This document shows positions 3,001 through 64,000 of a stretch of 64,000 nt of DNA, piece after piece. Location of the stretch: assembly GCA_032718475.1 (NCBI GenBank), contig JAUCBJ010005712.1, forward strand, positions 81,059 to 145,058, written 5' to 3'. Position 1 is the first letter of the stretch. Every line of letters begins with the position of its first letter. The translations under genes and the position numbers were made by a program. Under the pieces are notes generated by a model. It had not been told where the DNA came from. It ran no database searches and saw only the letters and a program-made list of their open reading frames with translations. The stretch is from Nemertoderma westbladi. Taxonomy: Eukaryota; Animalia; Xenacoelomorpha.

Positions 3001-6000
3001 GATAGAATAGAATACACAGATAGAATAGAATACACAGATAGAATAGAATACACAGATAGAATAGAATACACAGATAGAATAGAATAGAATACACAGATAG
3101 AATAGAATACACAGATAGAATAGAATACACAGATAGAATAGAATACACAGATAGAATAGAATACACAGATAGAATAGAATACACAGATAGAATAGAATAC
3201 ACAGATAGAATAGAATACACAGATAGAATAGAATACACAGATAGAATAGAATACACAGATAGAATAGAATAGAATACACAGATAGAATAGAATACACAGA
3301 TAGAATAGAATACACAGATAGAATAGAATACACAGATAGAATAGAATACACAGATAGAATAGAATACACAGATAGAATAGAATACACAGATAGAATAGAA
3401 TACACAGATAGAATAGAATACACAGATAGAATAGAATACACAGATAGAATAGAATACACAGATAGAATAGAATACACAGATAGAATAGAATACACAGATA
3501 GAATAGAATACACAGATAGAATAGAATACACAGATAGAATAGAATACACAGATAGAATAGAATACACAGATAGAATAGAATACACAGATAGAATAGAATA
3601 CACAGATAGAATAGAATACACAGATAGAATAGAATACACAGATAGAATAGAATACACAGATAGAATAGAATACACAGATAGAATAGAATACACAGATAGA
3701 ATAGAATAGAATACACAGATAGAATAGAATACACAGATAGAATAGAATACACAGATAGAATAGAATACACAGATAGAATAGAATACACAGATAGAATAGA
3801 ATACACAGATAGAATAGAATACACAGATAGAATAGAATACACAGATAGAATAGAATACACAGATAGAATAGAATACACAGATAGAATAGAATACACAGAT
3901 AGAATAGAATAGAATACACAGATAGAATAGAATACACAGATAGAATAGAATACACAGATAGAATAGAATACACAGATAGAATAGAATACACAGATAGAAT
4001 AGAATACACAGATAGAATAGAATACACAGATAGAATAGAATACACAGATAGAATAGAATACACAGATAGAATAGAATACACAGATAGAATAGAATACACA
4101 GATAGAATAGAATACACAGATAGAATAGAATAGAATACACAGATAGAATAGAATACACAGATAGAATAGAATACACAGATAGAATAGAATACACAGATAG
4201 AATAGAATAGAATACACAGATAGAATAGAATACACAGATAGAATAGAATACACAGATAGAATAGAATACACAGATAGAATAGAATACACAGATAGAATAG
4301 AATACACAGATAGAATAGAATACACAGATAGAATAGAATACACAGATAGAATAGAATACACAGATAGAATAGAATAGAATACACAGATAGAATAGAATAC
4401 ACAGATAGAATAGAATACACAGATAGAATAGAATAGAATACACAGATAGAATAGAATACACAGATAGAATAGAATACACAGATAGAATAGAATACACAGA
4501 TAGAATAGAATACACAGATAGAATAGAATAGAATACACAGATAGAATAGAATACACAGATAGAATAGAATACACAGATAGAATAGAATACACAGATAGAA
4601 TAGAATACACAGATAGAATAGAATACACAGATAGAATAGAATACACAGATAGAATAGAATAGAATACACAGATAGAATAGAATACACAGATAGAATAGAA
4701 TAGAATACACAGATAGAATAGAATAAATACACAGATAGAATAGAATAGAATAGAATACACAGATAGAATAGAATACACAGATAGAATAGAATACACAGAT
4801 AGAATAGAATACACAGATAGAATAGAATACACAGATAGAATAGAATACACAGATAGAATAGAATACACAGATAGAATAAATAGAATACACAGATAGAATA
4901 GAATACACAGATAGAATAGAATACACAGATAGAATAGAATACACAGATAGAATAGAATACACAGATAGAATAGAATACACAGATAGAATAGAATTCACAG
5001 ATAGAATAGAATACACAGATAGAATAGAATACACAGATAGAATAGAATAGAATACACAGATATAATAGAATACACAGATAGAATAGAATAGAATACACAG
5101 ATAGAATAGAATACACAGATAGAATAGAATACACAGATAGAATAGAATACACAGATAGAATAGAATACACATATAGAATAGAATACACAGATAGAATAGA
5201 ATACACAGATAGAATAGAATACACAGATAGAATAGAATACACAGATAGAATAGAATTCACAGATAGAATAGAATACACAGATAGAATAGAATACACAGAT
5301 AGAATAGAATAGAATACACAGATATAATAGAATACACAGATAGAATAGAATACACAGATAGAATAGAATACACAGATAGAATAGAATACACAGATAGAAT
5401 AGAATACACAGATAGAATAGAATACACAGATAGAATAGAATACACAGATAGAATAGAATACACAGATAGAATAGAATTCACAGATAGAATAGAATACACA
5501 GATAGAATAGAATACACAGATAGAATAGAATAGAATACACAGATATAATAGAATACACAGATAGAATAGAATACACAGATAGAATAGAATACACAGATAG
5601 AATAGAATACACAGATAGAATAGAATACACAGATAGAATAGAATACACAGATAGAATAGAATACACAGATAGAATAGAATACACAGATAGAATAGAATAC
5701 ACAGATAGAATAGAATACACAGATAGAATAGAATACACAGATAGAATAGAATACACAGATAGAATAGAATACACAGATAGAATAGAATACACAGATAGAA
5801 TAGAATAGAATACACAGATATAATAGAATACACATATAGAATAGAATACACAGATAGAATAGAATACACAGATAGAATAGAATACACAGATAGAATAGAA
5901 TACACAGATAGAATAGAATACACAGATAGAATAGACTACACAGATAGAATAGAATACACAGATGGAATAGAATACACAGATAGAATAGAATACACAGATA

Positions 6001-9000
6001 GAATAGAATAGAATACACAGATAGAATAGAATACACAGATAGAATAGAATAGAATACACAGATATAATAGAATACACAGATAGAATAGAATTCACAGATA
6101 GAATAGAATAGAATACACAGATATAATAGAATACACAGATAGAATAGAATACACAGATAGAATAGAATACACATATAGAATAGAATACACAGATAGAATA
6201 GAATACACAGATAGAATAGAATACACAGATAGAATAGAATACACAGATAGAATAGAATACACAGATAGAATAGAATAGAATACACAGATAGAATAGAATA
6301 CACAGATAGAATAGAATAGAATACACAGATAGAATAGAATACACAGATAGAATAGAATACACAGATAGAATAGAATACACAGATAGAATAGAATACACAG
6401 ATAGAATAGAATACACAGATAGAATAGAATACACAGATAGAATAGAATTCACAGATAGAATAGAATTCACAGATAGAATAGAATACACAGATAGAATAGA
6501 ATACACAGATAGAATAGAATAGAATACACAGATATAATAGAATACACAGATAGAATAGAATTCACAGATAGAATAGAATTCACAGATAGAATAGAATACA
6601 CAGATAGAATAGAATACACAGATAGAATAGAATAGAATACACAGATATAATAGAATACACAGATAGAATAGAATTCACAGATAGAATAGAATTCACAGAT
6701 AGAATAGAATACACAGATAGAATAGAATACACAGATAGAATAGAATAGAATACACAGATAGAATAGAATACACAGATAGAATAGAATTCACAGATAGAAT
6801 AGAATACACAGATAGAATAGAATACACAGATAGAATAGAATAGAATACACAGATATAATAGAATACACAGATAGAATAGAATTCACAGACAGAATAGAAT
6901 AGAATACACAGATATAATAGAATACACAGATAGAATAGAATACACAGATAGAATAGAATACACATATAGAATAGAATACACAGATAGAATAGAATACACA
7001 GATAGAATAGAATACACAGATAGAATAGAATACACAGATAGAATAGAATTCACAGATAGAATAGAATTCACAGATAGAATAGAATACACAGATAGAATAG
7101 AATTCACAGATAGAATAGAATAGAATACACAGATATAATAGAATACACAGATAGAATAGAATACACAGATAGAATAGAATACACATATAGAATAGAATAC
7201 ACAGATAGAATAGAATACACAGATAGAATAGAATACACAGATAGAATAGAATACACAGATAGAATAGAATTCACAGATAGAATAGAATACACAGATAGAA
7301 TAGAATACACAGATAGAATAGAATAGAATACACAGATATAATAGAATACACAGATAGAATAGAATACACAGATAGAATAGAATACACATATAGAATAGAA
7401 TACAGAGATAGAATATAATACACAGATAGAATAGAATACACATATAGAATAGAATACACAGATAGAATAGAATACACAGATAGAATAGAATACACAGATA
7501 GAATAGAATACACATATAGAATATAATACACAGATAGAATAGAATACACAGATAGAATCGAATACACATATAGAATATAATACACAGATAGAATAGAATA
7601 CACAGATAGAATAGAATACACAGATAGAATAGAATACACAGATAGAATAGAATACACAGATAGAATAGAATACACATATAGAATAGAATACACAGATAGA
7701 ATAGAATACACAGATAGAATAGAATACACAGATAGAATAGAATACACAGATAGAATAGAATACACATATAGAATAGAATACACAGATAGAATAGAATACA
7801 CAGATAGAATAGAATACACAGATAGAATAGAATACACAGATAGAATAGAATACACAGATAGAATAGAATACACAGATAGAATAGAATTCACAGATAGAAT
7901 AGAATACACAGATAGAATAGAATACACAGATAGAATAGAATAGAATACACAGATATAATAGAATACACAGATAGAATAGAATACACAGATAGAATAGAAT
8001 ACACATATAGAATAGAATACACATATAGAATAGAATACACAGATATAATAGAATACACAGATAGAATAGAATACACAGATAGAATAGAATACACAGATAG
8101 AATAGAATACACAGATAGAATAGAATACACAGATAGAATAGAATACACAGATAGAATAGAATTCACAGATAGAATAGAATACACAGATAGAATAGAATAC
8201 ACAGATAGAATAGAATAGAATACACAGATATAATAGAATACACAGATAGAATAGAATAGAATACACAGATAGAATAGAATACACAGATAGAATAGAATAC
8301 ACAGATAGAATAGAATACACAGATAGAATAGAATACACATATAGAATAGAATACACAGATAGAATAGAATACACAGATAGAATAGAATACACAGATAGAA
8401 TAGAATACACAGATAGAATAGAATTCACAGATAGAATAGAATACACAGATAGAATAGAATACACAGATAGAATAGAATAGAATACACAGATATAATAGAA
8501 TACACAGATAGAATAGAATACACAGATAGAATAGAATACACAGATAGAATAGAATACACAGATAGAATAGAATACACAGATAGAATAGAATACACAGATA
8601 GAATAGAATACACAGATAGAATAGAATACACAGATAGAATAGAATTCACAGATAGAATAGAATACACAGATAGAATAGAATACACAGATAGAATAGAATA
8701 GAATACACAGATATAATAGAATACACAGATAGAATAGAATACACAGATAGAATAGAATACACATATAGAATAGAATACACATATAGAATAGAATACACAG
8801 ATATAATAGAATACACAGATAGAATAGAATACACATATAGAATAGAATACACAGATAGAATAGAATACACAGATAGAATAGAATACACAGATAGAATAGA
8901 ATACACAGATAGAATAGAATTCACAGATAGAATAGAATACACAGATAGAATAGAATACACAGATAGAATAGAATAGAATACACAGATATAATAGAATACA

Positions 9001-12000
9001 CAGATAGAATAGAATACACAATAGAATACACAGATAGAATAGAATACACAGATAGAATAGAATACACAGATAGAATAGAATACACATATAGAATAGAATA
9101 CACAGATAGAATAGAATACACAGATAGAATAGAATACACAGATAGAATAGAATACACAGATAGAATAGAATTCACAGATAGAATAGAATACACAGATAGA
9201 ATAGAATACACAGATAGAATAGAATAGAATACACAGATATAATAGAATACACAGATAGAATAGAATACACAGATAGAATAGAATACACAGATAGAATAGA
9301 ATACACAGATAGAATAGAATACACAGATAGAATAGAATTCACAGATAGAATAGAATACACAGATAGAATAGAATAGAATACACAGATATAATAGAATACA
9401 CAGATATAATAGAATACACAGATAGAATAGAATACACAGATAGAATAGAATACACAGATAGAATAGAATACACAAATAGAATAGAATACACAGATAGAAT
9501 AGAATACACAGATAGAATAGAATACAAAGATAGAATAGAATACACAGATAAAATAGAATACACAGATAGAATAGAATACACAGATACAATAGAATACACA
9601 TATAGAATAGAATACACAGATAGAATAGAATACAAAGATGGAATATAATACAAAGATGGAATAGAATACACAGATAGAATAGAATACACAGATAGAATAG
9701 AATACACAGATACAATAGAATACACATATAGAATAGAATACACATATAGAATAGAATACACAGATAGAATAGAATACAAAGATGGAATAGAATACACAGA
9801 TAGAATAGAATACACAGATAGAATAGAATACACAGATAGAATAGAATACACAGATAGAATAGAATACACAGATAGAATAGAATACACAGATAGAATAGAA
9901 TTCACAGATAGAATAGAATACACAGATAGAATAGAATACAAAGATGGAATAGAATACACAGATAGAATAGAATACACAGATAGAATAGAATACACAGATA
10001 GAATAGAATACAGAGATAGAATATAATACACAGATAGAATAGAATACACAGATAGAATAGAATACACAGATAGAATAGAATACACAGATAGAATAGAATA
10101 CACAGATAGAATAGAATACACAGACAGAATAGAATACACAGATAGAATAGAATAGAATACACAGATAGAATAGAATACACAGATATAATAGAATACACAG
10201 ATAGAATAGAATACACAGATAGAATATAATACACAGATGGAATAGAGTACACAGATAGAATAGAATACACAGATAGAATAGAATACACAGATAGAATAGA
10301 ATACACAGATATAATAGAATACACAGATAGAATAGAATACACAGACAGAATAGAATACACAGATAGAATAGAATAGAATACACAGATAGAATAGAATACA
10401 CAGATAGAATAGAATACACAGATAGAATAGAATAGAATACACAGATAGAATAGAATACACAGATATAATAGAATACACAGATAGAATAGAATACACAGAT
10501 AGAATAGAATACACAGATAGAATAGAATAGAATACACAGATAGAATAGAATACACAGATATAATAGAATACACAGATAGAATAGAATACACAGATATAAT
10601 AGAATACACAGATAGAATAGAATACACAGACAGAATAGAATACACAGATAGAATAGAATAGAATACACAGACAGAATAGAATACACAGATAGAATAGAAT
10701 AGAATACACAGATAGAATAGAATATAATACACAGATAGAATAGAATAGAATAGAATACACAGATAGAATAGAATACACAGATATAATAGAATACACAGAT
10801 AGAATAGAATACACAGATATAATAGAATACACAGATAGAATAGAATACACAGACAGAATAGAATACACAGATAGAATATAATAGAATACACAGATAGAAT
10901 AGAATACACATATAGAATAGAATACACAGATAGAATAGAATACACAGATAGAATAGAATACACAGATAGAATAGAATACACAGATAGAATAGAATTCACA
11001 GATAGAATAGAATACACAGATAGAATAGAATACACAGATAGAATAGAATAGAATACACAGATATAATAGAATACACAGATAGAATAGAATAGAATACACA
11101 GATAGAATAGAATACACAGATAGAATAGAATACACAGATAGAATAGAATACACAGATAGAATAGAATACACATATAGAATAGAATACACAGATAGAATAG
11201 AATACACAGATAGAATAGAATACACAGATAGAATAGAATACACAGATAGAATAGAATTCACAGATAGAATAGAATACACAGATAGAATAGAATACACAGA
11301 TAGAATAGAATAGAATACACAGATATAATAGAATACACAGATAGAATAGAATACACAGATAGAATAGAATACACAGATAGAATAGAATACACAGATAGAA
11401 TAGAATACACAGATAGAATAGAATACACAGATAGAATAGAATACACAGATAGAATAGAATACACAGATAGAATAGAATTCACAGATAGAATAGAATACAC
11501 AGATAGAATAGAATACACAGATAGAATAGAATAGAATACACAGATATAATAGAATACACAGATAGAATAGAATACACAGATAGAATAGAATACACATATA
11601 GAATAGAATACACATATAGAATAGAATACACAGATATAATAGAATACACAGATAGAATAGAATACACATATAGAATAGAATACACAGATAGAATAGAATA
11701 CACAGATAGAATAGAATACACAGATAGAATAGAATACACAGATAGAATAGAATTCACAGATAGAATAGAATACACAGATAGAATAGAATACACAGATAGA
11801 ATAGAATAGAATACACAGATATAATAGAATACACAGATAGAATAGAATACACAATAGAATACACAGATAGAATAGAATACACAGATAGAATAGAATACAC
11901 AGATAGAATAGAATACACATATAGAATAGAATACACAGATAGAATAGAATACACAGATAGAATAGAATACACAGATAGAATAGAATACACAGATAGAATA

Positions 12001-45756: not shown

Positions 45757-48700
45757 AGTAGGTATTAGGCAACCTTTACCACACTTAGTTATAGCGACAA
45801 CAGTAGCTATTAGGCAACCTTTACCACGCTTAGTGATAGCGAGAACAGTAGGTATTAGGCAACCTTTACCACGCTTAGTGATAGCGAGAACAGTAGGTAT
45901 TAGGCAACCTTTACCACACTTAGTTATAGCGACAACAGTAGGTATTAGGCAACCTTTACCACGCTTAGTGATAGCGAGAACAGTAGGTATTAGGCAACCT
46001 TTACCACGCTTAGTGATAGCGAGAACAGTAGGAATTAGGCAACCTTTACCACACTTAGGGATAGTGACAACAGTAGGTATTAGGCAACCTTTACCACACT
46101 TAGAGATAGCGACAACAGTAGGAATTAGGCAACCTTTACCACACTTGGAGATAGCGACAACAGTAGGTATTAGGCAACCTTTACCACACTTAGAGATAGC
46201 GACAACAGTAGCTATTAGGCAACCTTTACCACACTTAGAGATAGCGACAACAGTAGGAATTAGGCAACCTTTACCACACTTAGGGATAGTGACAACAGTA
46301 GGTATTAGGCAACCTTTACCACACTTAGAGATAGCGACAACAGTAGCTATTAGGCAACCTTTACCACGCTTAGGGATAGCGACAATAGTAGGTATTAGGC
46401 AACCTTTACCACGCTTAGTTATAGCGACAACAGTAGCTATTAGGCAACCTTTACCACGCTTAGAGATAGCGACAACAGTAGGTATTAGGCAACCTTTACC
46501 ACGCTTAGATATAGCGACAACAGTAGCTATTAGGCAACCTTTACCACGCTTAGTGATAGCGAGAACAGTAGGTATTAGGCAACCTTTACCACACTTAGTT
46601 ATAGCGACAACAGTAGCTATTAGGCAACCTTTACCACGCTTAGGGATAGCGACAACAGTAGGTATTAAGCAACCTTTACCACGCTTAGTTATAGCGACAA
46701 CAGTAGCTATTAGGCAACCTTTACCACGCTTAGAGATAGCGACAACAGTAGGTATTAGGCAACCTTTACCACGCTTAGTGATAGCGACAACAGTAGCTAT
46801 TAGGCAACCTTTACCACGCTTAGAGATAGCGACAACAGTAGGTATTAGGCAACCTTTACCACGCTTAGAGATAGCGACAACAGTAGGTATTAGGCAACCT
46901 TTACCACGCTTAGGGATAGCGAGAACAGTAGGTATTAGGCAACCTTTACCACACTTAGTGATAGCGACAACAGTAGGTATTAGGCAACCTTTACCACGCG
47001 TAGCGACAACAGTAGGTATTAGGCAACCTTTACCACACTTAGTGATAGCGAGAACAGTAGGTATTAGGCAACCTTTACCACACTTAGTGATAGCGACAAC
47101 AGTAGGTATTAGGCAACCTTTACCACACTTAGTGATAGCGACAACAGTAGGTATTAGGCAACCTTTACCACGCGTAGCGACAACAGTAGTTATTAGGCAA
47201 CCTTTACCACGCGTAGCGACAACAGTAGGTATTAGGCAACCTTTACCACGCGTAGCGACAACAGTAGGTATTAGGCAACCTTTACCACACTTAGTGATAG
47301 CGAGAACAGTAGGTATTAGGCAACCTTTACCACACTTAATGATAGCGACAACAGTAGGTATTAGGCAACCTTTACCACGCGTAGCGACAACAGTAGGTAT
47401 TAGGCAACCTTTACCACACTTAGTGATAGCGAGAACAGTAGGTATTAGGCAACCTTTACCACGCTTAGTGATAGCGAGAACAGTAGGTATTAGACAACCT
47501 TTACCACGCTTAGTGATAGCGACAACAGTAGGTATTAGGCAACCTTTACCACGCTTAGTGATAGCGACAACAGTAGGTATTAGGCAACCTTTACCAACTT
47601 AGTGATAGCGACAACAGTAGGTATTAGGCAACCTTTACCACGCTTAGTGATAGCGAGAACAGTAGGTATTAGGCAACCTTTACCACGCTTAGTGATAGCG
47701 AGAACAGTAGGTATTAGGCAACCTTTACCACGCTTAGTGATAGCGACAACAGTAGGTATTAGGCAACCTTTACCACGCTTAGTGATAGCGAGAACAGTAG
47801 GTATTAGGCAACCTTTACCACGCTTAGAGATAGCGACAACAGTAGGTATTAGGCAACCTTTACCACGCTTAGTGATAGCGAGAACAGTAGGTATTAGGCA
47901 ACCTTTACCACGCTTAGTGATAGCGAGAACAGTAGCTATTAGGTAACCTTTACCACGCTTAGGGATAGCGACAACAGTAGGTATTAGGCAACCTTTACCA
48001 CGCTTAGTGATAGCGACAACAGTAGGTATTAGGCAACCTTTACCACACTTAGAGATAGCGACAACAGTAGGTATTAGGCAACCTTTACCACGCTTAGAGA
48101 TAGCGACAACAGTAGGTATTAGGTAACCTTTACCACGCTTAGTGATATCGAGAACAGTAGCTATTAGGTAACCTTTACCACGCTTAGGGATAGCGACAAC
48201 AGTAGGTATTAGGCAACCTTTACCACGCTTAGTGATAGCGAGAACAGTAGGTATTAGGCAACCTTTACCACGCTTAGTGATAGCGAGAACAGTAGCTATT
48301 AGGTAACCTTTACCACGCTTAGGGATAGCGACAACAGTAGGTATTAGGCAACCTTTACCACGCTTAGTGATAGCGACAACAGTAGGTATTAGGCAACCTT
48401 TACCACGCTTAGAGATAGCGACAACAGTAGGTATTAGGCAACCTTTACCACGCTTAGGGATAGCGACAACAGTAGGTATTAGGCAACCTTTACCACACTT
48501 AGTGATAGCGACAACAGTAGGTATTAGGCAACCTTTACCACACTTAGGGATAGCGAGAACAGTAGGTATTAGGCAACCTTTACCACACTTAGAGATAGCG
48601 ACAACAGTAGGAATTAGCAACCTTTACCACGCTTAGTGATAGCGACAACAGTAGGTATTAGGCAAACTTTACCACGCTTAGAGATAGCGACAACAGTAGG

Positions 48701-51700
48701 TATTAGGCAACCTTTACCACGCTTAGTGATAGCGAGAACAGTAGCTATTAAGTAACCTTTACCACGCTTAGTGATAGCGACAACAGTAGGTATTAGGCAA
48801 CCTTTACCACGATTAGTTATAGCGACAACAGTAGCTATTAGGCAACCTTTACCACGCTTAGAGATAGCGACAACAGTAGGTATTAGGCAACCTTTACCAC
48901 GCTTAGATATAGCGACAACAGTAGCTATTAGGCAACCTTTACCACGCTTAGTGATAGCGAGAACAGTAGGTATTAGGCAACCTTTACCACACTTAGTTAT
49001 AGCGACAACAGTAGCTATTAGGCAACCTTTACCACGCTTAGGGATAGCGACAACAGTAGGTATTAAGCAACCTTTACCACGCTTAGTTATAGCGACAACA
49101 GTAGCTATTAGGCAACCTTTACCACGCTTAGAGATAGCGACAACAGTAGGTATTAGGCAACCTTTACCACGCTTAGTGATAGCGACAACAGTAGCTATTA
49201 GGCAACCTTTACCACGCTTAGAGATAGCGACAACAGTAGGTATTAGGCAACCTTTACCACGCTTAGAGATAGCGACAACAGTAGGTATTAGGCAACCTTT
49301 ACCACGCTTAGGGATAGCGAGAACAGTAGGTATTAGGCAACCTTTACCACACTTAGTGATAGCGACAACAGTAGGTATTAGGCAACCTTTACCACGCGTA
49401 GCGACAACAGTAGGTATTAGGCAACCTTTACCACACTTAGTGATAGCGAGAACAGTAGGTATTAGGCAACCTTTACCACACTTAGTGATAGCGACAACAG
49501 TAGGTATTAGGCAACCTTTACCACACTTAGTGATAGCGACAACAGTAGGTATTAGGCAACCTTTACCACGCGTAGCGACAACAGTAGTTATTAGGCAACC
49601 TTTACCACGCGTAGCGACAACAGTAGGTATTAGGCAACCTTTACCACGCGTAGCGACAACAGTAGGTATTAGGCAACCTTTACCACACTTAGTGATAGCG
49701 AGAACAGTAGGTATTAGGCAACCTTTACCACACTTAATGATAGCGACAACAGTAGGTATTAGGCAACCTTTACCACGCGTAGCGACAACAGTAGGTATTA
49801 GGCAACCTTTACCACACTTAGTGATAGCGAGAACAGTAGGTATTAGGCAACCTTTACCACGCTTAGTGATAGCGAGAACAGTAGGTATTAGGCAACCTTT
49901 ACCACGCTTAGTGATAGCGACAACAGTAGGTATTAGGCAACCTTTACCACGCTTAGTGATAGCGACAACAGTAGGTATTAGGCAACCTTTACCAACTTAG
50001 TGATAGCGACAACAGTAGGTATTAGGCAACCTTTACCACGCTTAGTGATAGCGAGAACAGTAGGTATTAGGCAACCTTTACCACGCTTAGTGATAGCGAG
50101 AACAGTAGGTATTAGGCAACCTTTACCACGCTTAGTGATAGCGACAACAGTAGGTATTAGGCAACCTTTACCACGCTTAGTGATAGCGAGAACAGTAGGT
50201 ATTAGGCAACCTTTACCACGCTTAGAGATAGCGACAACAGTAGGTATTAGGCAACCTTTACCACGCTTAGTGATAGCGAGAACAGTAGCTATTAGGTAAC
50301 CTTTACCACACTTAGTGATAGCGAGAACAGTAGGTATTAGGCAACCTTTACCACGCTTAGTGATAGCGAGAACAGTAGCTATTAGGTAACCTTTACCACG
50401 CTTAGGGATAGCGACAACAGTAGGTATTAGGCAACCTTTACCACGCTTAGTGATAGCGACAACAGTAGGTATTAGGCAACCTTTACCACACTTAGAGATA
50501 GCGACAACAGTAGGCATTAGGCAACCTTTACCACGCTTAGAGATAGCGACAACAGTAGGTATTAGGTAACCTTTACCACGCTTAGTGATATCGAGAACAG
50601 TAGCTATTAGGTAACCTTTACCACGCTTAGGGATAGCGACAACAGTAGGTATTAGGCAACCTTTACCACGCTTAGTGATAGCGAGAACAGTAGGTATTAG
50701 GCAACCTTTACCACGCTTAGTGATAGCGAGAACAGTAGCTATTAGGTAACCTTTACCACGCTTAGGGATAGCGACAACAGTAGGTATTAGGCAACCTTTA
50801 CCACGCTTAGTGATAGCGACAACAGCAGGTATTAGGCAACCTTTACCACGCTTAGAGATAGCGACAACAGTAGGTATTAGGCAACCTTTACCACGCTTAG
50901 GGATAGCGACAACAGTAGGTATTAGGCAACCTTTACCACACTTAGTGATAGCGACAACAGTAGGTATTAGGCAACCTTTACCACACTTAGGGATAGCGAG
51001 AACAGTAGGTATTAGGCAACCTTTACCACACTTAGAGATAGCGACAACAGTAGGAATTAGCAACCTTTACCACGCTTAGTGATAGCGACAACAGTAGGTA
51101 TTAGGCAAACTTTACCACGCTTAGAGATAGCGACAACAGTAGGTATTAGGCAACCTTTACCACGCTTAGTGATAGCGAGAACAGTAGCTATTAAGTAACC
51201 TTTACCACGCTTAGTGATAGCGACAACAGTAGGTATTAGGCAACCTTTACCACGATTAGGGATAGCGACAACAGTAGGTATTAGGCAACCTTTACCACAC
51301 TTAGTGATAGCGACAACAGTAGGTATTAGGCAACCTTTACCACACTTAGTGATAGCGACAACAGTAGGTATTAGGCAACCTTTACCACGCGTAGCGACAA
51401 CAGTAGGTATTAGGCAACCTTTACCACGCTTAGTTATAGCGACAACAGTAGCTACTAGGCAACCTTTACCACGCTTAGGGATAGCGACAACAGTAGGTAT
51501 TAGGCAACCTTTACCACACTTAGTGATAGCGACAACAGTAGGTATTAGGCAACCTTTACCACACTTAGAGATAGCGACAACAGTAGCTATTAGGCAACCT
51601 TTACCACACTTAGTGATAGCGACAACAGTAGGTATTAGGCAACCTTTACCACACTTAGAGATAGCGACAACAGTAGGTATTAGGCAACCTTTACCACGCT

Positions 51701-53630
51701 TAGTGATAGCGAGAACAGTAGGTATTAGGCAACCTTTACCACGCTTAGTGATAGCGAGAACAGTAGCTATTAGGTAACCTTTACCACGCTTAGGGATAGC
51801 GACAACAGTAGGTATTAGGCAACCTTTACCACGCTTAGTGATAGCGACAACAGTAGGTATTAGGCAACCTTTACCACGCTTAGAGATAGCGACAACAGTA
51901 GGTATTAGGCAACCTTTACCACGCTTAGTGATAGCGAGAACAGTAGGTATTAGGCAACCTTTACCACGCTTAGTGATAGCGAGAACAGTAGCTATTAGGT
52001 AACCTTTACCACGCTTAGGGATAGCGACAACAGTAGGTATTAGGCAACCTTTACCACGCTTAGTGATAGCGACAACAGTAGGTATTAGGCAACCTTTACC
52101 ACACTTAGAGATAGCGACAACAGTAGGTATTAGGCAACCTTTACCACGCTTAGAGATAGCGACAACAGTAGGTATTAGGTAACCTTTACCACGCTTAGTG
52201 ATATCGAGAACAGTAGCTATTAGGTAACCTTTACCACGCTTAGGGATAGCGACAACAGTAGGTATTAGGCAACCTTTACCACGCTTAGTGATAGCGAGAA
52301 CAGTAGGTATTAGGCAACCTTTACCACGCTTAGTGATAGCGAGAACAGTAGCTATTAGGTAACCTTTACCACGCTTAGGGATAGCGACAACAGTAGGTAT
52401 TAGGCAACCTTTACCACGCTTAGTGATAGCGACAACAGCAGGTATTAGGCAACCTTTACCACGCTTAGAGATAGCGACAACAGTAGGTATTAGGCAACCT
52501 TTACCACGCTTAGGGATAGCGACAACAGTAGGTATTAGGCAACCTTTACCACACTTAGTGATAGCGACAACAGTAGGTATTAGGCAACCTTTACCACACT
52601 TAGGGATAGCGAGAACAGTAGGTATTAGGCAACCTTTACCACACTTAGAGATAGCGACAACAGTAGGAATTAGCAACCTTTACCACGCTTAGTGATAGCG
52701 ACAACAGTAGGTATTAGGCAAACTTTACCACGCTTAGAGATAGCGACAACAGTAGGTATTAGGCAACCTTTACCACGCTTAGTGATAGCGAGAACAGTAG
52801 CTATTAAGTAACCTTTACCACGCTTAGTGATAGCGACAACAGTAGGTATTAGGCAACCTTTACCACGATTAGGGATAGCGACAACAGTAGGTATTAGGCA
52901 ACCTTTACCACACTTAGTGATAGCGACAACAGTAGGTATTAGGCAACCTTTACCACACTTAGTGATAGCGACAACAGTAGGTATTAGGCAACCTTTACCA
53001 CGCGTAGCGACAACAGTAGGTATTAGGCAACCTTTACCACGCTTAGTTATAGCGACAACAGTAGCTACTAGGCAACCTTTACCACGCTTAGGGATAGCGA
53101 CAACAGTAGGTATTAGGCAACCTTTACCACACTTAGTGATAGCGACAACAGTAGGTATTAGGCAACCTTTACCACACTTAGAGATAGCGACAACAGTAGC
53201 TATTAGGCAACCTTTACCACACTTAGTGATAGCGACAACAGTAGGTATTAGGCAACCTTTACCACACTTAGAGATAGCGACAACAGTAGGTATTAGGCAA
53301 CCTTTACCACGCTTAGATATAGCGACAACAGTAGCTATTAGGCAACCTTTACCACACTTAGTGATAGCGACAACAGTAGGTATTAGGCAACCTTTACCAC
53401 ACTTAGTGATAGCGACAACAGTAGGTATTAGGCAACCTTTACCACGCGTAGCGACAACAGTAGGTATTAGGCAACCTTTACCACACTTAGTGATAGCGAC
53501 AATAGTAGGTATTAGGCAACCTTTACCACACTTAGTGATAGCGACAACAGTAGGTATTAGGCAACCTTTACCACGCGTAGCGACAACAGTAGGTATTAGG
53601 CAACCTTTACCACACTTAGAGATAGCGACA
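45757..53630. repeat. 45-bp minisatellite AGTAGGTATTAGGCAACCTTTACCACGCTTAGTGATAGCGACAAC (39-bp deletion variants), about 175-180 units, with ~2.4-kb and ~1.6-kb higher-order duplications
   Basis: Seen directly. Matching ORF break points in the supplied track recur at offsets of 2398 (47602/50000), 2443 (48620/51063) and 1613 (51063/52676). Confidence 0.98.
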
Positions 53631-55040: not shown

Positions 55041-56033
55041 TTAATAACGATATCGTCCAAAATCAACCAGAGCAATAAGGGGTTGCTCAAACACCTGTAT
55101 CCGAATGCGAGAAAGTCTTCTGCGATATGACTTATGCAGATAAATGTAGATGATAGGGTTAACGATGGTATCTGTGTAGCTAAAGAAGGTGGCGGTGGAG
55201 CTGAAATACCTAGCAAACGACACAATGTCAGCAGGTTCCGCTATAGATATCATAAGCTGAAAGCTCCAAAAAGGTAAGAAACTTAACAAAAAAACAATAA
55301 CCACAAATAATACCAATTTCGTCATTCGAATTGTGGCCCTCTTATTGGTTTCAAACCTGTTGCGTTCTGTTTCTGATAGTTGCTGTTGGGTTGCGTTCTC
55401 TCTACCCGAACCCCATTGCAACAGAATAATAATTTTACCATAGAAAAATGAAATGGCAATTAATGGTAGAATATAAAAGACCGCGCAGAGAATGTAGTTA
55501 TATTTGCGATGAGAGAATGAGGACGGCCAATCAGATCCACAGAAGTACCCTCTATAACCTTCCACCATCGTAGTGTACAGGAACATAGGCAGAGCCCACA
55601 GAAAACCTGCCACCCAAACGCCGCCACACAGAGCGTAGGTTATCCACGTAGCCTTGTGGTTGAAATTTTTCACGAGCACGAAATACCGTTCACCACTAAT
55701 GATAACGCACATGTAGACCCCAGATAACATTGATAACACGTCCATACTGAAGATGAATCTACAACCGGTATCTCCGAAATACCATTGGCTGTAATAGAAG
55801 TTGGTGATTCCTAAGAAAGGGCATCCAATGATGTACATCAAATCAGCAAATGCGAGATTCAAAATAAACACATCGATGCCATATTGCAAACGTTTCGGTT
55901 TCGGTGTCGTTAGAATTAAAGATATTAATGTCAAAATGGCGAGAAAAGAAGTGAGAAATATTCCAAAATATAGAGTTCCTGCTACGTGGTAAAAAACGTA
56001 CGACTTTGAGGCAATGATAACGGATTCATTCAT
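55041..56033 (-). CDS. UTS2R-like: Single-exon class A (rhodopsin-like) peptide GPCR, 330 aa, urotensin-II receptor-like (somatostatin/MCH/urotensin receptor group)
   Basis: Seven hydrophobic segments. Motifs: TM2 ILNLAFADL, ECL1 WYFGDTGCR, TM3 Asp (SMDVLSM) and ERY, TM4 Trp, ECL2 Cys, TM5 YILP, TM6 FLLSFLPFWSFQL, TM7 NPIIY, and an N-terminal NES sequon. WxFGDxGCR...D...ERY and FLPFW..QL match my recollection of vertebrate UTS2R. An in-frame TGA lies just upstream of the ATG. Confidence 0.9.
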   Translation of the reverse strand: MNESVIIASKSYVFYHVAGTLYFGIFLTSFLAILTLISLILTTPKPKRLQYGIDVFILNLAFADLMYIIGCPFLGITNFYYSQWYFGDTGCRFIFSMDVLSMLSGVYMCVIISGERYFVLVKNFNHKATWITYALCGGVWVAGFLWALPMFLYTTMVEGYRGYFCGSDWPSSFSHRKYNYILCAVFYILPLIAISFFYGKIIILLQWGSGRENATQQQLSETERNRFETNKRATIRMTKLVLFVVIVFLLSFLPFWSFQLMISIAEPADIVSFARYFSSTATFFSYTDTIVNPIIYIYLHKSYRRRLSRIRIQVFEQPLIALVDFGRYRY

Positions 56034-56311
56034 AACGAATTTTCTTTTTATTCCGAGTCACATAATATCAGTGTTCAGTGGTTAAATGTCAAAATGTTGA
56101 GATTTCTTGAGGTTAATAATTATATGGGATGTAGCGTTTACACCCTAATTATATTGGTGAAATCGGTTGTATCATTTTGCCAAACCGAACACTATGAGCG
56201 AGAACATCCTCACTTTACAACACAGTTTATGTAAAAAAAATCATCACGTAATGTAGGATAGAAATCACGCAAATCTACGGAGCCCGGGAAGGGACATGAA
56301 AAAATATTTTT

Positions 56312-56400
56312 CTAACACGAGCCCTCATGTTAGTAACACGAGCCCTCGTGTTAGCTAACACAAGCCCTAGTGTTAGCTAACACGAGCCCTCATGATAGCT
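56312..56400. repeat. Four tandem ~22-bp palindromic subterminal repeats, CTAACACGAG-CC-CTCGTGTTAG (one copy at the right end, ~59215-59235)
   Basis: Seen directly. The 10-bp arms of the consensus are reverse complements; individual copies carry 1-2 mismatches. Likely transposase-binding sites (inference). Confidence 0.85.
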
Positions 56401-56984
56401 CTAACGACCATTTACGTTAATATTACAAATTTGGAGTTGTTTGATTGGTTGTAGTAACATAGGAGAACTAAATTGGAGGGAAATTAAAATTGTATCTCAA
56501 TGGTTCTTACGTTACTGTTCAGTATACTGGTATAGGCCTATTATATATTTCGCGTCTCGTAACGGCTGCAGGTATACTGACTTGAATATGAATAACGAAC
56601 TGGAAACCTTAATGAGAGAACGATTCATTGGACGAGTTATTATGTTTACGACATAATTGGCATATTATTGACATATTACGACAAATTAGGTTTACTTTGG
56701 AACATATCAATGACTACGATTGGCGATCTCAAATCAATGCTGTATGTATCAATAACATATAGGCCTATAACTATATACTATTATGGCGGCCTATATGGAT
56801 TAGTTGTGAAACTTAATTGCTGAATAATTACAATTATCTAAAATTAATGTAACTTAATCAATCTCTTTCACTTTCTTAATTTCTTCTTTCTTAATTAATA
56901 AATAAATTATAAATATTGCCCGCTATAATGAATTATTATCTTTAAGAAAGTGTTTGAAAAATTGTATGAGAGGATTAGTAATAA

Positions 56985-57093
56985 TTATTATTATATTAAA
57001 CATATCTTTATTAATAATTATTATTAAATTAAACATATCTTTATTAATAATAATTATTAAATTAAACATATCTTTATTAATAATAATTATTAA
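56985..57093. repeat. AT-rich 33-bp tandem repeat (ATTAAACATATCTTTATTAATAATAATTATTAA) x3, in the intron upstream of the HECT exon
   Basis: Seen directly; produces the IIIINKDMFNL x3 repeat in the ORF track. Confidence 0.85.
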
Positions 57094-57119
57094 AGGAAAA
57101 TATATTTTCTTGCTTTTAG

Positions 57120-57401
57120 CCGGCATTGACGTACCCGGATTTCCAGGAGAACGAATTTATTTGAAGAATTTATTACAGTTTATTACTGGCTCAGATAGTG
57201 TCCCGGCTCTCGGATTCGAGGAGCAACCTTTGGTGTTGTTCGAGCACCCTGACGATGAAGTTGATCCGGTTAACCAAGGAATCCCTAAGGTGAACGACCT
57301 GCGGGAAGCAAATCTGCTTACCTGTTATGGACAGTTACGAAATATTCAAGGAGCGCATGACACTATGTGTTCACATGTTGTCAACATTTTCCACGGAATA
57401 A
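57120..57401 (+). pseudogene. Terminal exon of a HECT-type E3 ubiquitin ligase (G2E3-like C-lobe) with a +1 frameshift at ~57296, inside the transposon
   Basis: Splice acceptor ttttcttgcttttAG ends at 57119. Frame A reads LKNLLQFITGSDSVPALGFEEQPLVLFEH...IPKVN. Removing G57296 gives TCGKQICLPVMDSYEIFKERMTLCVHMLSTFSTE-stop (TAA 57399-57401, overlapped by AATAAA). FITG..VP.LGF, the P..NTC catalytic Cys, LP and the Phe four residues from the C-terminus are HECT C-lobe hallmarks. Confidence 0.85.
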
Positions 57402-57426
57402 ATGAATGAAATAACAACTAAACTTA

Positions 57427-59122
57427 CTACCGTTAGTAGGCAGTACAGTACAGTAGGTAGTACCGTTAGTAGGCAGTACAGTACAGTAGGTAGTACCGTT
57501 AGTAGGCAGTACAGTACAGTAGGTAGTACCGTTAGTAGGCAGTACAGTACAGTAGGTAGTACCGTTAGTAGGCCGTACAGTACAGTAGGTAGTACCGTTA
57601 GTAGGCAGTACAGTACAGTAGGTAGTACTGTTAGTAGGCAGTACAGTACAGTAGGTAGTACCGTTAGTAGGCAATACAGTACAGTAGGTAGTACCGTTAG
57701 TAGGCAGTACAGTACAGTAGGTAGTACCGTTAGTAGGCAGTACAGTACAGTAGGTAGTACTGTTAGTAGGCAGTACAGTACAGTAGGTAGTACCGTTAGT
57801 AGGCCGTACAGTACAGTAGGTAGTACCGTTAGTAGGCCGTACAGTACAGTAGGTAGTACCGTTAGTAGGCAGTACAGTACAGTAGGTAGTACCGTTAGTA
57901 GGCCGTACAGTACAGTAGGTAGTACCGTTAGTAGGCAGTACAGTACAGTAGGTAGTACCGTTAGTAGGCAGTACAGTACAGTAGGTATAGTAACGTTAGT
58001 AGGCCGTACAGTACAGTAGGTAGTACCGTTAGTAGGCCGTACAGTACAGTAGGTAGTACCGTTAGTAGGCCGTACAGTACAGTAGGTAGTACCGTTAGTA
58101 GGCAGTACAGTACAGTAGGTAGTACCGTTAGTAGACCGTACAGTACAGTAGGTATAGTACCGTTAGTAGGCCGTACAGTACAGTAGGTAGTACCGTTAGT
58201 AGGCCGTACAGTACAGTAGGTAGTACCGTTAGTAGGCAGTACAGTACAGTAGGTAGTACCATTAGTAGGCAGTACAGTACAGTAGGTAGTACTGTTAGTA
58301 GGCAGTACAGTACAGTAGGTAGTACCGTTAGTAGGCAGTACAGTACAGTAGGTAGTACCGTTAGTAGGCAGTACAGTACAGTAGGTAGTACCGTTAGTAG
58401 GCAATACACTACAGTAGGTAGTACCGTTAGTAGGCAATACACTACAGTAGGTAGTACCGTTAGTAGGCAGTACAGTACAGTAGGTAGTACCGTTTGTAGG
58501 CAGTACAGTACAGTAGGTAGTACCGTTAGTAGGCAGTACAGTACAGTAGGTAGTACCGTTAGTAGGCAGTACAGTACAGTAGGTAGTACCGTTAGTAGGC
58601 AGTACAGTACAGTAGGTAGTACCGTTAGTAGGCAGTACAGTACAGTAGGTAGTACCGTTAGTAGGCAGTACAGTACAGTAGGTAGTACCGTTTGTAGGCA
58701 GTACAGTACAGTAGGTAGTACCGTTAGTAGGCAATACACTACAGTAGGTAGTACCGTTAGTAGGCAGTACAGTACAGTAGGTAGTACCGTTAGTAGGCAA
58801 TACACTACAGTAGGTAGTACCGTTAGTAGGCAGTACAGTACAGTAGGTAGTACCGTTTGTAGGCAGTACAGTACAGTAGGTAGTACCGTTAGTAGGCAGT
58901 ACAGTACAGTAGGTAGTACCGTTAGTAGGCAGTACAGTACAGTAGGTAGTACCGTTAGTAGGCAGTACAGTACAGTAGGTAGTACCGTTAGTAGGCAGTA
59001 CAGTACAGTAGGTAGTACCGTTAGTAGGCAGTACAGTACAGTAGGTAGTACCGTTAGTAGGCAGTACAGTACAGTAGGTAGTACCGTTAGTAGGCAGTAC
59101 AGTACAGTAGGTAGTACCGTTA
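57427..59122. repeat. 33-bp minisatellite AGTACCGTTAGTAGGCAGTACAGTACAGTAGGT, ~51 units, internal to the TIR element
   Basis: Seen directly; two 35-bp (+TA) variants near 57985 and 58152. Confidence 0.97.
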
Positions 59123-59729
59123 GGCCTACATATAGATAAGATACACTTTGATACATATGACAATTGAGATACAATTTTAATTTCCCTCCAATTTAGTTAA
59201 ATTTCCCTCCAATTTAACACGAGGGCTCGTGTTAGAAAAATATTTTTTTCATGTCCCTTCCCGGGCTCCGTACAAATCGCCGCAAATTATGGTTTAAGAA
59301 GACAGCGTAAAAACTTTGACTCCCAAAAAGTTACCTTAAAACATAATATCACAACTGCGATGAAATAAAATCGCTAACGGATTATTATTTATATAGGGTA
59401 AATTATTATAGGATGGCGAATCGCATGGATGTGTTGAGTATAGAAATAATACGACGCTCTTATTGGATAATAAGATAAGAGGACAATGTGAGTAAATGAA
59501 GAATAAGTTACAAAATGCAACAGTTGAGTTACAGATAGTTGTGTTGGATATGTTAATTATTATAATATGCTGTAAAAGCAGCCTTGTAGATATATTATAT
59601 ATATATATTAATGAATACATTGTTACGTTTGGATTAGTAGCTCTTTAGGTGCTTTATACCCTGTATGAGTAAATGAGTATGGTCTATGGTGTATCAGGTA
59701 GGGGTACGGAAGCCTCTTAGCGACCAGGA

Positions 59730-61015
59730 GACAAACATTAATGAGGGGCACAAACATTAATGAGGGACACATTAATGAGGGACACAAACATTACTGACGG
59801 ACACAAATATTAATGAGGGATACAAACATTAATGAGGGACACAAACATTAATGAGGGGCACATTAATGAGGGACACAAACATTAATTAGGGACACAAACA
59901 TTAATTAGGGACACAAACATTAATGAGGGACACAAACATTAATTAGGGACACAAACATTAATGAGGGACACAAACATTAATTAGGGACACAAACATTAAT
60001 GAGGGACACAAATATTAATGAGGGACACACATTAATGAGGGACACAAACATTAATGAGAGATACAAACATTAATGAGGGACACAAACATTAATGAGGGAC
60101 ACAGTCATTAATGATGGACACAAACATTAATGAGGGATACAAACATTAATGAGGGACACAAACATTAATGAGGGGCACATTAATGAGGGACACAAACATT
60201 AATTAGGGACACAAACATTAATTAGGGACACAAACATTAATGAGGGACACAAACATTAATTAGGGACACAAACATTAATGAGGGACACAAACATTAATTA
60301 GGGACACAAACATTAATGAGGGACACAAATATTAATGAGGGACACACATTAATGAGGGACACAAACATTAATGAGAGATACAAACATTAATGAGGGACAC
60401 AAACATTAATGAGGGACACAGTCATTAATGATGGACACAAACATTAATGAGGGACACAAACATTAATGTAGGACACAAACATTAATGAGGGACACAAACA
60501 TTAATTAGGGACACAAACATTAATGAGGGACACAAATATTAATGAGGGACACATATTAATGAGGGACACAAACATTAATGAGGGATACAAAAATTAATGA
60601 GGGACACAAACATTAATGATGGACACAAACATTAATGAGGGACACAAACATTAATGAGGGACACAAACATTAATGTAGGACACAAACATTAATGAGGGAC
60701 ACAAACATTAATTAGGGACACAAACATTAATGAGGGACACAAATATTAATGAGGGACACATATTAATGAGGGACACAAACATTAATGAGGGACACAAACA
60801 TTAATGAGGGACACAAACATTAATGAGGGACACAAACATTAATGAGGGACACAAACATTAATGAGGGACACAAACATTAATGAGGGACACAAATATTAAT
60901 GAGGGACACAGACATTAATGAGGGACACAAACATTAATGAAGGCCACAAACATTAATGAGGGACACAAACATTAATGAGGGACACAAACATTAATCAGGG
61001 GCACAACATTAATAG
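59730..61015. repeat. 19-bp minisatellite ACAAACATTAATGAGGGAC (15-bp variants), ~68 units, containing a ~319-bp internal duplication
   Basis: Seen directly. Variants gagagatac and acagtcattaatgatgg each recur ~319 bp apart (~60056/60374 and ~60101/60420). Confidence 0.96.
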
Positions 61016-61080
61016 GAGCACTACAATAATTTATGGTGTGTCATCACCCATAGAAATTAATGTGTTCTATTTTTAAAAAG

Positions 61081-61341
61081 TGACCGCTCGACGCGGCCGC
61101 TCGCCGCTCCTGTGGTGTATCACGGCCTTTAAGTCAATTGAGGAATTCGGGTTTCCTGTACGTTTAGAAACAGACAGGGGAACAGAGAATGGCCTCAGCT
61201 GCAGAGCCCAAGTCTTCTTTCGCAGAGACAGCGAAGCGCATCGGTACATTTCTTATCTTAAAAACCAACGTATCGAGTCATGGTGGGCTATACTTCGCAA
61301 GACATGGAGTAACTTCTGGATAAATTTACTTAAAGATCTTG
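61081..61341 (+). pseudogene. Fragment of a DDE integrase-core transposase (IS3/IS481-like eukaryotic type, IS3EU-like)
   Basis: Peptide FGFPVRLETDRGTENG...Q.FFR...HRYISYLKNQRIESWWAILRK...FWINLLKDL contains the second catalytic Asp (D-x-G-T-E-N) and the catalytic Glu (N-Q-R-I-E) motifs. Possible acceptor AG at 61079-61080. Similarity stops abruptly at TGTTAG (61342). Confidence 0.8.
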
Positions 61342-64000
61342 TGTTAGCTTATTCAATCCCGCCAACACCCCATAAAGTTGTAAGCCGATAAGCAATATTG
61401 GGAGCCACGAGATTGGGCAATTAACCAACTCGTGCCATCCCAATAAGAGTGGGAAGGAAGCACACAATAGAGGGTCAGGGGCCAAACCCCTAACCCAAGG
61501 AGAACAGGTGGAGTGAAGGGGAATACTCCACGGGGCGCCAACGAGGGTATCAACCAATCAGAGGGGGGAATGGCATCGATTGAGTAGCAGTAAGGCCAAC
61601 CGTGCAGTATAGCCACTTGGCAGTAATATTACCTATTCAGTTATCTCAGTGCAGCAGTGCTAGCGTAGGGTACAGCCAATTAGTTTAGTTAGGGGATCAC
61701 GGGACTTTAGTTACCGTATCCCGCCTTGTACACATTTACAATATATCCATATCTTATAACCTCCTATTATACACCGAACTTCAGAACTCAGTCACTTTAT
61801 TTCATCCTTATACACGGCGGGGACGCGTGGACTAAATTACCACAACCGGATAAATCGGGATCCCTCTTGGATCCCGTCACAGTAACTAAATCGGTGCTGC
61901 TTCCCCAGCTAAACTCAGTAACTAAAGCCAGCTGCCGCCCTAGACAAACTCTATAAACACTAGCCACCGAAATCTGCAGAAGAGAGATGAGCGATTCGGG
62001 CGAGACACCACCGCGGACCCCGGACGAAGACCTAACGATCCGCGAGGCCGCGACCAAACGATACAGGCCCACGACGCCGGAGCCATCGATAGTGGGCGGA
62101 CCGGAAGTCGAGGATGAGGGGGGCCTGGAGCTCGAAGCCGAGCCAAGAGAAAGGGAGAGCGAGAAGGAGGGAGAAAGGGCGGAGTCGACACGGGACGGAG
62201 AAAGGCGCGCCGATGTCGCCGGCCAGCTACCGGCCGAGGGCGACGAGCGGCCCACCGAAACGGTGACGGTGGGGCCGACGGTGCGACGCCGGACGCGAAG
62301 AGACGGAACAAAGATCGGTACCGATGTCGCCGGCCAGCTACAGGCCGAGGGCGACGGACGGCCCACCGGAACGGCGACGGTGGAGCCGCCGGTACGACGT
62401 CGAACCCGGAGGGAGAGGGGAGAAGTCGGCGACGAGGACGTCGGGGTTTCTGAGCGACTCCGACGCGCTTACATCGCAACCCGGAGGATACTAAACGATG
62501 CCAAGAAGAAAGGGGCGAAGGTGGACGAGGTGAGACTGAGGAAGCGACTAGGTGAGTCGGATAAACACTTTAGTTATCTAATACACTTTGAGCAGAGAGA
62601 GCTAGCCGAAACGAGGGCACATGAGATTGCCGTGGAACTATTGGAACTGTGGGAGCGTGGGGGTATGGAACCTAGTGTAGGGCCAGTGTACATAGGGCCA
62701 TACTCGGTCGATGCCCGGGGAATAAAACCGGTGGGTTGGAGGGGACTCGAAGGGGGCGAATCCGAGGTTAACTCCGAGGATTCGGCCTCGTCGGTCGGAG
62801 AAAGTTCCGGGAAGCGGGGGAGAGCCAGTGGGTCGGGAAGGCGGAGGGAATCCGTTACAACCGATAAGTCTGCTACATCCTCCGTAAAAGAAAGACGGGT
62901 GAGAGAGATAGAGGCCAGACACCGTCTCAATCTAGCGGTGGAAGCTAATAGAGAAGTAGGTAGACGGCTAGAGGAGGGGAGAGTGATGCTAGAGAGGGAA
63001 GCGGTGTCGATTAAAGAGTTAAGGGAAAGGGGCGAAAGGGCCGCGAGGAACCTTAGGGAGTATGACGAGATGGAGTTGAGGGAAGAGAGGGAACGCGAGG
63101 CGGAACGCGAGAAACGCGAGGCGGAACGCAGGGAGCGTGAGGCGAGAGAGGAAAGTGAACGCAGGGAGCGTGAGGCGAGAGAGGAAAGTGAACGCAGGGA
63201 GCGTGAGGCGAGAGAGGAAAGTGAACGCAAAGAGCGTAAGGCGAGAAGAAGAGAGGGGATTGTGAGAGAGATGGAATTGGTCGAGCAGAGAGAACGGGAG
63301 TCTAGCGAGAAAGTAACAAGAGAGGAGAGTGGCCGAATAGAGTTAGAGAAACGGCGAGAGAAACTCCTAGAGTATACAGCTGTACACGCGCGCGATTTGG
63401 AACGGGCGCGGGCAGGAGTGTCTGAAAGCGGGGCCGGCTCGAGTATTTTTGAGGAGCCGAGGGCCGTAGATACATTTATTAATGCCCCACTGACAGGGAC
63501 CGCACGACAGACCCAAAACTGGTGTGACCGTACGGGCGGGGGGGGTAATAATAATGATGGTACAGTAGGCGTTGTTAATATTGATAATACCGTATGGGAC
63601 AACACTAATCAAACCTTTATTGCAGGAAATACTTTACCTAGTGGTAGTAATTTAAATTTAAATCAGAACAATCCTAGTGTTAATGTAGGAGATAATTCTA
63701 ATATTGATGTAGTTACGCAAAATAATTCAAATAATCAAAATAATAATCCAAATTCGAGCCTACAAAATAATTTAAATAACGCGATCACGCAAAATAATTC
63801 GAATAATTTAAATAATGACCTAAATCCGAATTTACAAAATAATTCGGATAACGTGGCCGCCCAGAGTAATACAAACGATTTTGTTTTGGGCGAGCAAATT
63901 AATTCCGTTTCCAATATGGGTGTTATTAGTGTAGACACGTCGGGCCTACGTAACCAGGGAGCAGAGGGCCTGGTAGGCCACGTAGTTAGTAGACAGGGAG
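61342..64000 (+). mobile_element. Probable LTR retrotransposon, 5' portion (LTR/leader plus gag-like ORF), possibly BEL/Pao; continues beyond the window
   Basis: Abrupt TGTT start exactly where transposase similarity ends, then ~640 bp of higher-GC non-coding sequence and a long open ORF. The 3' LTR, TSD, a clear PBS and pol domains are not visible, so the class is inference. Confidence 0.55.
61987..64000 (+). CDS. Long ORF open to the window end (at least 671 codons): acidic/Pro N-terminus, E/R-rich coiled coil, Asn-rich low-complexity region; gag-like N-terminal region
   Basis: Hand translation from ATG 61987 (MSDSGETPPRTPDEDL...) finds no stop to base 64000. Missing from the ORF track, presumably because it has no stop in the window. 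Contains a 111-bp (37-aa) duplication at 62211/62322 and a 33-bp ERREREAREES repeat at ~63124-63250. Confidence 0.8.
   Translation, partial: MSDSGETPPRTPDEDLTIREAATKRYRPTTPEPSIVGGPEVEDEGGLELEAEPRERESEKEGERAESTRDGERRADVAGQLPAEGDERPTETVTVGPTVRRRTRRDGTKIGTDVAGQLQAEGDGRPTGTATVEPPVRRRTRRERGEVGDEDVGVSERLRRAYIATRRILNDAKKKGAKVDEVRLRKRLGESDKHFSYLIHFEQRELAETRAHEIAVELLELWERGGMEPSVGPVYIGPYSVDARGIKPVGWRGLEGGESEVNSEDSASSVGESSGKRGRASGSGRRRESVTTDKSATSSVKERRVREIEARHRLNLAVEANREVGRRLEEGRVMLEREAVSIKELRERGERAARNLREYDEMELREEREREAEREKREAERREREAREESERREREAREESERREREAREESERKERKARRREGIVREMELVEQRERESSEKVTREESGRIELEKRREKLLEYTAVHARDLERARAGVSESGAGSSIFEEPRAVDTFINAPLTGTARQTQNWCDRTGGGGNNNDGTVGVVNIDNTVWDNTNQTFIAGNTLPSGSNLNLNQNNPSVNVGDNSNIDVVTQNNSNNQNNNPNSSLQNNLNNAITQNNSNNLNNDLNPNLQNNSDNVAAQSNTNDFVLGEQINSVSNMGVISVDTSGLRNQGAEGLVGHVVSRQG

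Follow-up and report, generated by a model that had tools for sequence, protein, structure and literature searches.

IS3EU and GingerRoot transposons are described, in the available sections of PMC10045372 and PMC6839031, as having TA..TA termini, a 6-bp target-site duplication, long terminal inverted repeats (TIRs) and non-autonomous derivatives. All of these features are shared by an element that we describe here from a 64-kb stretch of Nemertoderma westbladi DNA (hereafter the window). The relatives encode an integrase-like transposase of the rva_4 type (PF24764), whereas the copy in the window has no transposase. In the accessible text of PMC11934779, IS3EU is called largely unexplored in structure and function, and PMC10853768 refers to a second IS3EU protein without saying what it is.

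Two kinds of described elements come closest to the window locus. Fungal IS3EU elements carrying TET/JBP or alpha-kinase genes share with it TAYGG..CCRTA ends, the 6-bp duplication and an enzyme gene whose strand is opposite to that of the transposase, but their cargo is a kinase and a dioxygenase instead of a ubiquitin ligase and their hosts are fungi; an anti-silencing role has been proposed for the TET cargo (available text of PMC12730594). Gene-fragment GingerRoots and Pack-MULEs likewise hold intron and exon fragments within TIRs and have lost the transposase. Their fragments derive from host genes at 79-98% identity, whereas the exon in the window belongs to a type that autonomous elements in many genomes contain (available text of PMC6839031).

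G2E3-type matches occur in the portions of two reports at hand: a repeat candidate in Cottus matched G2E3 (PMC5638112), and 20 G2E3-like copies in a sea cucumber were read as a DNA-repair adaptation (PMC9700323). HECT and ubiquitin are not mentioned in the available main text of PMC10045372 or PMC6839031, and the same keywords are absent from the one supplement each of PMC6839031 and PMC12730594 that was covered. Our literature search returned no report of HECT cargo in IS3EU; Repbase or Dfam entries or Kojima 2019 may name the second protein.

The element and its orphan HECT exon

The element comprises 2,997 bp at 56276-59272 of the window (coordinates are on the + strand unless marked otherwise) and is flanked on both sides by CAAATC (56270-56275 and 59273-59278), a perfect 6-bp target-site duplication. 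Its termini, TACGG…CCGTA, conform to the TAYGG..CCRTA version of the TA..TA ends of IS3EU/GingerRoot. The left TIR (56276-56332) starts TACGGAGCCC and the right TIR (59215-59272, - strand) finishes GGGCTCCGTA. By blastn the two align over 58 bp at 96.6%, above the threshold of 30 bp set for this feature, and complementarity is 92% over the outermost 36 bp (56276-56311 and 59237-59272). Two occurrences of the 20-nt terminus were counted in the window, where 0.00 would be expected. The original prediction of an IS3EU-like element with near-perfect TIRs and a CAAATC duplication is thus borne out.

Within these boundaries, 4.1 copies of a subterminal 22-bp repeat (56312-56400), with one related copy in the right end, form putative and likely transposase-binding sites, and a 39-bp internal segment (56466-56504) recurs in inverted orientation at 59160-59198 (97%). 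Further inward lies an AT-rich intron end with 33-bp repeats (56975-57119), followed by the last exon of a HECT E3 ubiquitin ligase (57120-57401). A tandem array of 51.3 copies of a 33-bp unit (57428-59123) accounts for 1,696 of the 2,997 bp and occupies the place of the transposase gene in convergent relatives. An autonomous member would hold a DDE transposase within its TIRs; none is present here, and tblastn with three transposases matches the window only at 61083-61340, outside the element.

The intron ends in a pyrimidine-rich acceptor (...cttttag, AG at 57118-57119) of predicted phase 1. Downstream of it, two reading frames are joined at one extra base, 57296. Read through with X at this base, the exon encodes 92 aa that match PF00632 HECT with an E-value of 2.8e-10 and 40.7 bits (cut-off 23.9 bits), so the HECT call stands on the frameshift-corrected peptide; the first half of the exon alone reaches 19.7 bits. 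The read-through also matches 13 distinct solved HECT chains, with SMURF2 as the best at 30.2 bits. In this alignment the exon Cys (57300-57302) falls on the Cys of PKAHTC in SMURF2, with a Phe at position -4. The Cys at the PKAHTC-motif position is the catalytic Cys of HECT ligases. In line with this, the C-lobe motifs, the Cys and the -4 Phe align with those of host HECT ligases (SMURF2, NEDD4 family). The locus differs from these ligases in its score of 30.2 bits at best, in the missing N-lobe and in its exon structure, which is unlike that of two inspected host genes.

The intron end, acceptor, last exon, Cys, -4 Phe, stop codon and frame-breaking base near 57296 had all been foreseen from the sequence and were recovered. 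For the AATAAA, the result is mixed: the motif is present at 57397 and is the only one within 57101-57440, but it is built from the last codon plus the stop and is therefore weak as a polyadenylation signal. We no longer count it as independent support for the gene end.

Wider searches with the exon gave few relatives. A representative search with its first half returned five matches; two of them, P0004 and P0005, were discarded as unrelated repeat proteins. None of 15 candidates passed in a protein search with the read-through peptide, none of the 29 viral and 88 metagenome stretches that matched HECT patterns was confirmed, and an Atlas look-up returned eukaryotic HECT clusters only.

The HECT N-lobe binds the E2 enzyme, and a C-lobe without it cannot ligate ubiquitin. 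With four full-length HECT-type proteins as queries, no other HECT exon was found in the 64-kb window; an open frame encoding an N-lobe with its E2-binding region is thus absent, and the frame is broken at 57296. Since the N-lobe is missing, the exon cannot ligate ubiquitin. The present copy cannot encode a working ligase and is a dead remnant.

Most of the window consists of tandem repeat, with a 44.6-kb array at 1-44613 (18-bp unit, 2,431 copies) and a 7.9-kb array at 45757-53630 (45-bp unit, 177 copies). Between these arrays and the element, an intact single-frame rhodopsin-family GPCR gene is found at 55041-56033 (- strand; 7tm_1, E 1.4e-44). Its likely start codon is ~240 bp from the left end of the element, and the insertion may sit in the GPCR promoter or 5' region. 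On the other side, a second IS3EU-type element spans 59705-61343. Its end starts TACGGAAGCC and matches ends upstream of transposases in four loci at 17 of 23 bases; an array of 68.8 copies of a 19-bp unit follows, and then a transposase fragment (61077-61343) with 55% identity to P0002 and an rva_4 score of 19.2 bits, below the cut-off. No partner for the end at 59705 was found within the window. We rejected this fragment as a part of the HECT element, as it lies outside 56276-59272 and follows the different IS3EU-type end at 59705. It is succeeded by a probable LTR retroelement (~61340-64000), whose 681-codon open frame has no Pfam match and which has an end, GGATCCCGTCACA, at 61869-61881.

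Sister copies in Nemertoderma westbladi

Other copies of the element were sought in short, unphased contigs from three runs of two studies. Summed contig depth, which is not a copy number, is 3,324-11,423 over 56300-56399 and 11.4-23.6 on the flank in runs X1-X3, so the terminus is hundreds of times as deep as the flank. At least six contigs in X1, five in X3 and two in X5 continue into other sequence before 56276. Because these contigs run into different flanks, the element belongs to a dispersed mobile family with copies at different sites. Flank contigs end at 56271, 56256 and 56313, and variants seen in one contig each depart from the window sequence after 56526. Over the exon, the depth is only ~2x that of the flank in two of the three runs, and there are 35 contigs in total (5, 7, 23 and 0 in four runs, the last being X4; X5 has none there either, which in both runs need not mean absence).

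The sister exon copies decay freely. A T>G change at 57171 creates a stop in X1 and X3, the splice acceptor is lost in an X3 copy, X2 copies carry 16-base and 2-base deletions, and a junction to other sequence occurs at 57343 in all three runs. We also observed that a sister copy breaking at this position continues into sequence that opens with the reversed 13 bases of the GGATCCCGTCACA end. All seven contigs covering 57307 differ there from the window, and all three runs continue differently after 57425, which indicates that the window holds a distinct copy or allele.

The extra base at 57296 was also checked against these data, at the level of contigs, and is missing in all four contigs that cover the position, in three runs. 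As it lies outside a homopolymer, we lean towards a private mutation. If it were instead an assembly error, the exon might be spliced into a working transcript, an idea with which both the four contigs and a set of overlapping, unphased X2 contigs (records 6, 8 and 11) that tile an open exon with its acceptor would agree. We consider this extremely unlikely, given that no further HECT exon could be detected in the window, that the neighbouring GPCR gene is on the other strand and points away, and that the window, by its differences at 57307 and after 57425, seems to be a distinct copy.

HECT genes beside transposases and the origin of the exon

Loci from other genomes were collected by searching for the transposase motif WHxDG[YH]DKLK in degenerate form. 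This yielded at least 120 metagenome loci (~390 estimated overall), 40 of which hold at most 630 bp, and five contigs in prokaryote assemblies; all 125 match transposase P0009. A HECT match by tblastn is present in 12 of them. A C-lobe profile built from eight relatives, with the window sequence left out, matches 11 of the 125, in every case downstream of the transposase and on the opposite strand. Among loci with at least 2 kb on the respective side, 10/25 carry the C-lobe downstream versus 0/16 upstream, and with at least 4 kb the figures are 8/12 versus 0/8. L049 is a duplicate of L056; with one of them removed the latter comparison becomes 7/11 versus 0/7 (Fisher p 0.013, with related loci being non-independent). 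Four of the 12 long downstream loci have no HECT match.

The reverse search gave a similar picture. Of four assemblies, three have Pfam HECT matches, at 13 distinct loci, and eight of these loci have transposase sequence within ~10 kb (six convergent, two on the same strand), one of the eight being the locus by which its assembly was selected. Two of the remaining loci are on short contigs and three have no transposase within 20 kb; the two transposase-free loci that we inspected are NEDD4-like multi-exon genes whose C-lobe is split over several exons. The exceptions to the convergent layout are two G003 loci, in which HECT C-lobe and transposase pieces are found on the same strand (L134:9967-11490 and L135:11798-14792). 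G001, G002 and G003 (L121-L140) are prokaryote species-representative assemblies with long contigs that hold spliced HECT genes and eukaryotic transposons, and these contigs are likely mis-binned animal or host DNA. Transposase scans of viral contigs gave no confirmed case.

Complete elements were identified by a strict scan of 75 sequences of at least 2 kb, requiring TAYGG ends and a perfect, non-palindromic 6-bp duplication; candidates whose duplications proved palindromic or mismatched (L004, L124/L127, L128, L129, L131, L135 and inner L132 pairs) are not counted. Three TAYGG-ended elements around a transposase were found (L132, L043 and L074), two of which hold both genes. In L132 (7,307 bp), the HECT gene has several exons, the last of which scores 28.8 bits, and the 414-codon transposase frame scores 243.5 bits; both are above the Pfam cut-offs. 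L043 (5,980 bp) encloses a frameshifted HECT-like gene and a transposase within its TIRs, and its relative L080 has open frames of 710 and 440 codons. The 710-codon frame has no Pfam match, and the HECT call for L043 and L080 therefore rests on our custom profile and tblastn. This intronless frame (L080:725-2854, + strand) has a long N-terminal part that is a candidate for a substrate-binding region. At L022, a 520-codon frame spans nearly the whole HECT profile. The layout shared by the complete elements with both genes is TIR, HECT gene, opposite-strand transposase, TIR. L074 (L074:296-3180) is compact, with 2,885 bp, a 412-codon transposase frame and a perfect 6-bp duplication. As no HECT was detected in this complete element, the HECT cargo appears to be dispensable in some lineages.

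The catalytic-position Cys is kept in 9/9 transposase-linked C-lobes, although picking by profile favours Cys-keeping C-lobes. Between L080 and L043, dN/dS is 0.51 for the HECT-like gene (p 1e-5) and 0.44 for the transposase (p 1e-3), from a single pair with one decayed partner. Together, Cys retention and this pair suggest that the HECT gene is maintained in intact elements.

The window element is tied to these families by its ends and by its exon. Of its first 23 bases, 20 match the ends upstream of the L007 and L059 transposases, and 19 and 18 match the two ends of L074. Ten of 1,259 TAYGG sites are within seven mismatches of the window terminus, against a mean of 0.45 and a maximum of 4 in 200 shuffles. 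L007 combines such a terminus, upstream of its transposase, with a convergent HECT. A profile of nine transposase-linked C-lobes gives the exon 53.6 bits, versus 40.7 on Pfam HECT, and the exon reaches 47.0 bits against L049 versus 30.2 against SMURF2, the best solved host HECT; the other linked C-lobes, apart from the L049/L056 duplicates, give 10-23 bits or none, below SMURF2. A phase-1 acceptor is predicted at a similar place in L049/L056, L012, L124 and L007. In a C-lobe tree without a host outgroup, in which 1/15 inner branches is supported, the window falls in no well-supported clade.

By sequence, the closest proteins to the exon are P0003, P0006 and P0007 (64.6-77.8 bits). The relatives that have a name, P0022-P0024, are 'G2E3-like' proteins from Saccoglossus, Ptychodera and Haliotis and score 67-83 bits on the linked profile, a likeness in score only. 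True G2E3 has N-terminal PHD-type/RING fingers and conserved synteny among its orthologues.

Taken together, we propose that the window locus is very probably a non-autonomous IS3EU/GingerRoot deletion derivative with a dead remnant of a HECT gene that is likely the family's own. Since related complete elements carry a ligase beside the transposase, the exon is likely the leftover of the transposon's second gene. The original prediction had left the choice between host-exon capture and origin by deletion from a family with a ligase gene of its own; the linkage elsewhere, the complete elements and the terminus match support the second. Its autonomous parent would have been laid out as TIR, HECT gene, opposite-strand transposase, TIR. 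Internal deletions would then have taken out the upstream HECT exons and the transposase, leaving the end of the last intron and the last exon, after which the 33-bp unit would have expanded into the array. The remnant would move, or would have moved, with transposase supplied in trans.

A one-off, Pack-type capture, in which a transposase-only family of the L074 kind copied the last intron and exon of a single-copy host HECT gene, appears unlikely. GingerRoots do take up intron-exon fragments of 84-1,654 bp, often with the transposase lost (available text of PMC6839031), L074 shows that the end type of the window exists without HECT, and the exon depth of only ~2x the flank in two of three runs would fit such an event. 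The exon itself, in contrast, is like the transposase-linked type: the linked profile gives 26.1 and 22.8 bits for its two halves, but 8.5-14.0 for four exons taken singly from two NEDD4-like host genes. The inspected host genes of this kind also divide the C-lobe among several exons, and the position and strand of the window exon agree with the convergent layout.

It is highly unlikely that an exon of the transposon-borne type reached the element by capture or recombination from some other element, or from a domesticated copy, instead of from its own parent. Cargo genes do move between fungal transposon lineages including IS3EU (available text of PMC12730594), another family of IS3EU type is present at a distance of 433 bp, and the one-contig variants leave the window sequence after 56526. 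Against this, L007 unites a nearly identical terminus with a convergent HECT, so descent from the element's own parent needs no extra step.

Proposed ligase role and significance

In intact elements, we would expect the ligase to aid the spread of the element. Its most likely job would be to mark for destruction a host protein that acts in restriction or silencing, a tentative proposal with chances just short of even that draws on the analogy with the anti-silencing role proposed for the TET cargo of fungal IS3EU (available text of PMC12730594). The next candidate, tagging of the element's own transposase for turnover or post-integration removal, is possible but rather doubtful. More broadly, there may be a widespread animal IS3EU branch in which an active HECT ligase is a regular second gene, directed against a host factor of restriction or silencing, and many of the annotated 'G2E3-like' expansions in aquatic animals, the 20 sea-cucumber copies included, would in that case be transposon genes; we offer this as a conjecture somewhat more apt to fail than to hold.

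The window locus is a fossil, and the intact elements L132, L022 and L080 would be better objects of study. The multi-copy 'G2E3-like' annotations now have a testable alternative reading. If the proposal is true, a cut-and-paste transposon equipped with a ubiquitin ligase would be a mobile element of eukaryotes that steers host protein degradation, and the substrate of this ligase would point either to a host defence against DNA transposons or to the way in which transposase is removed after integration.
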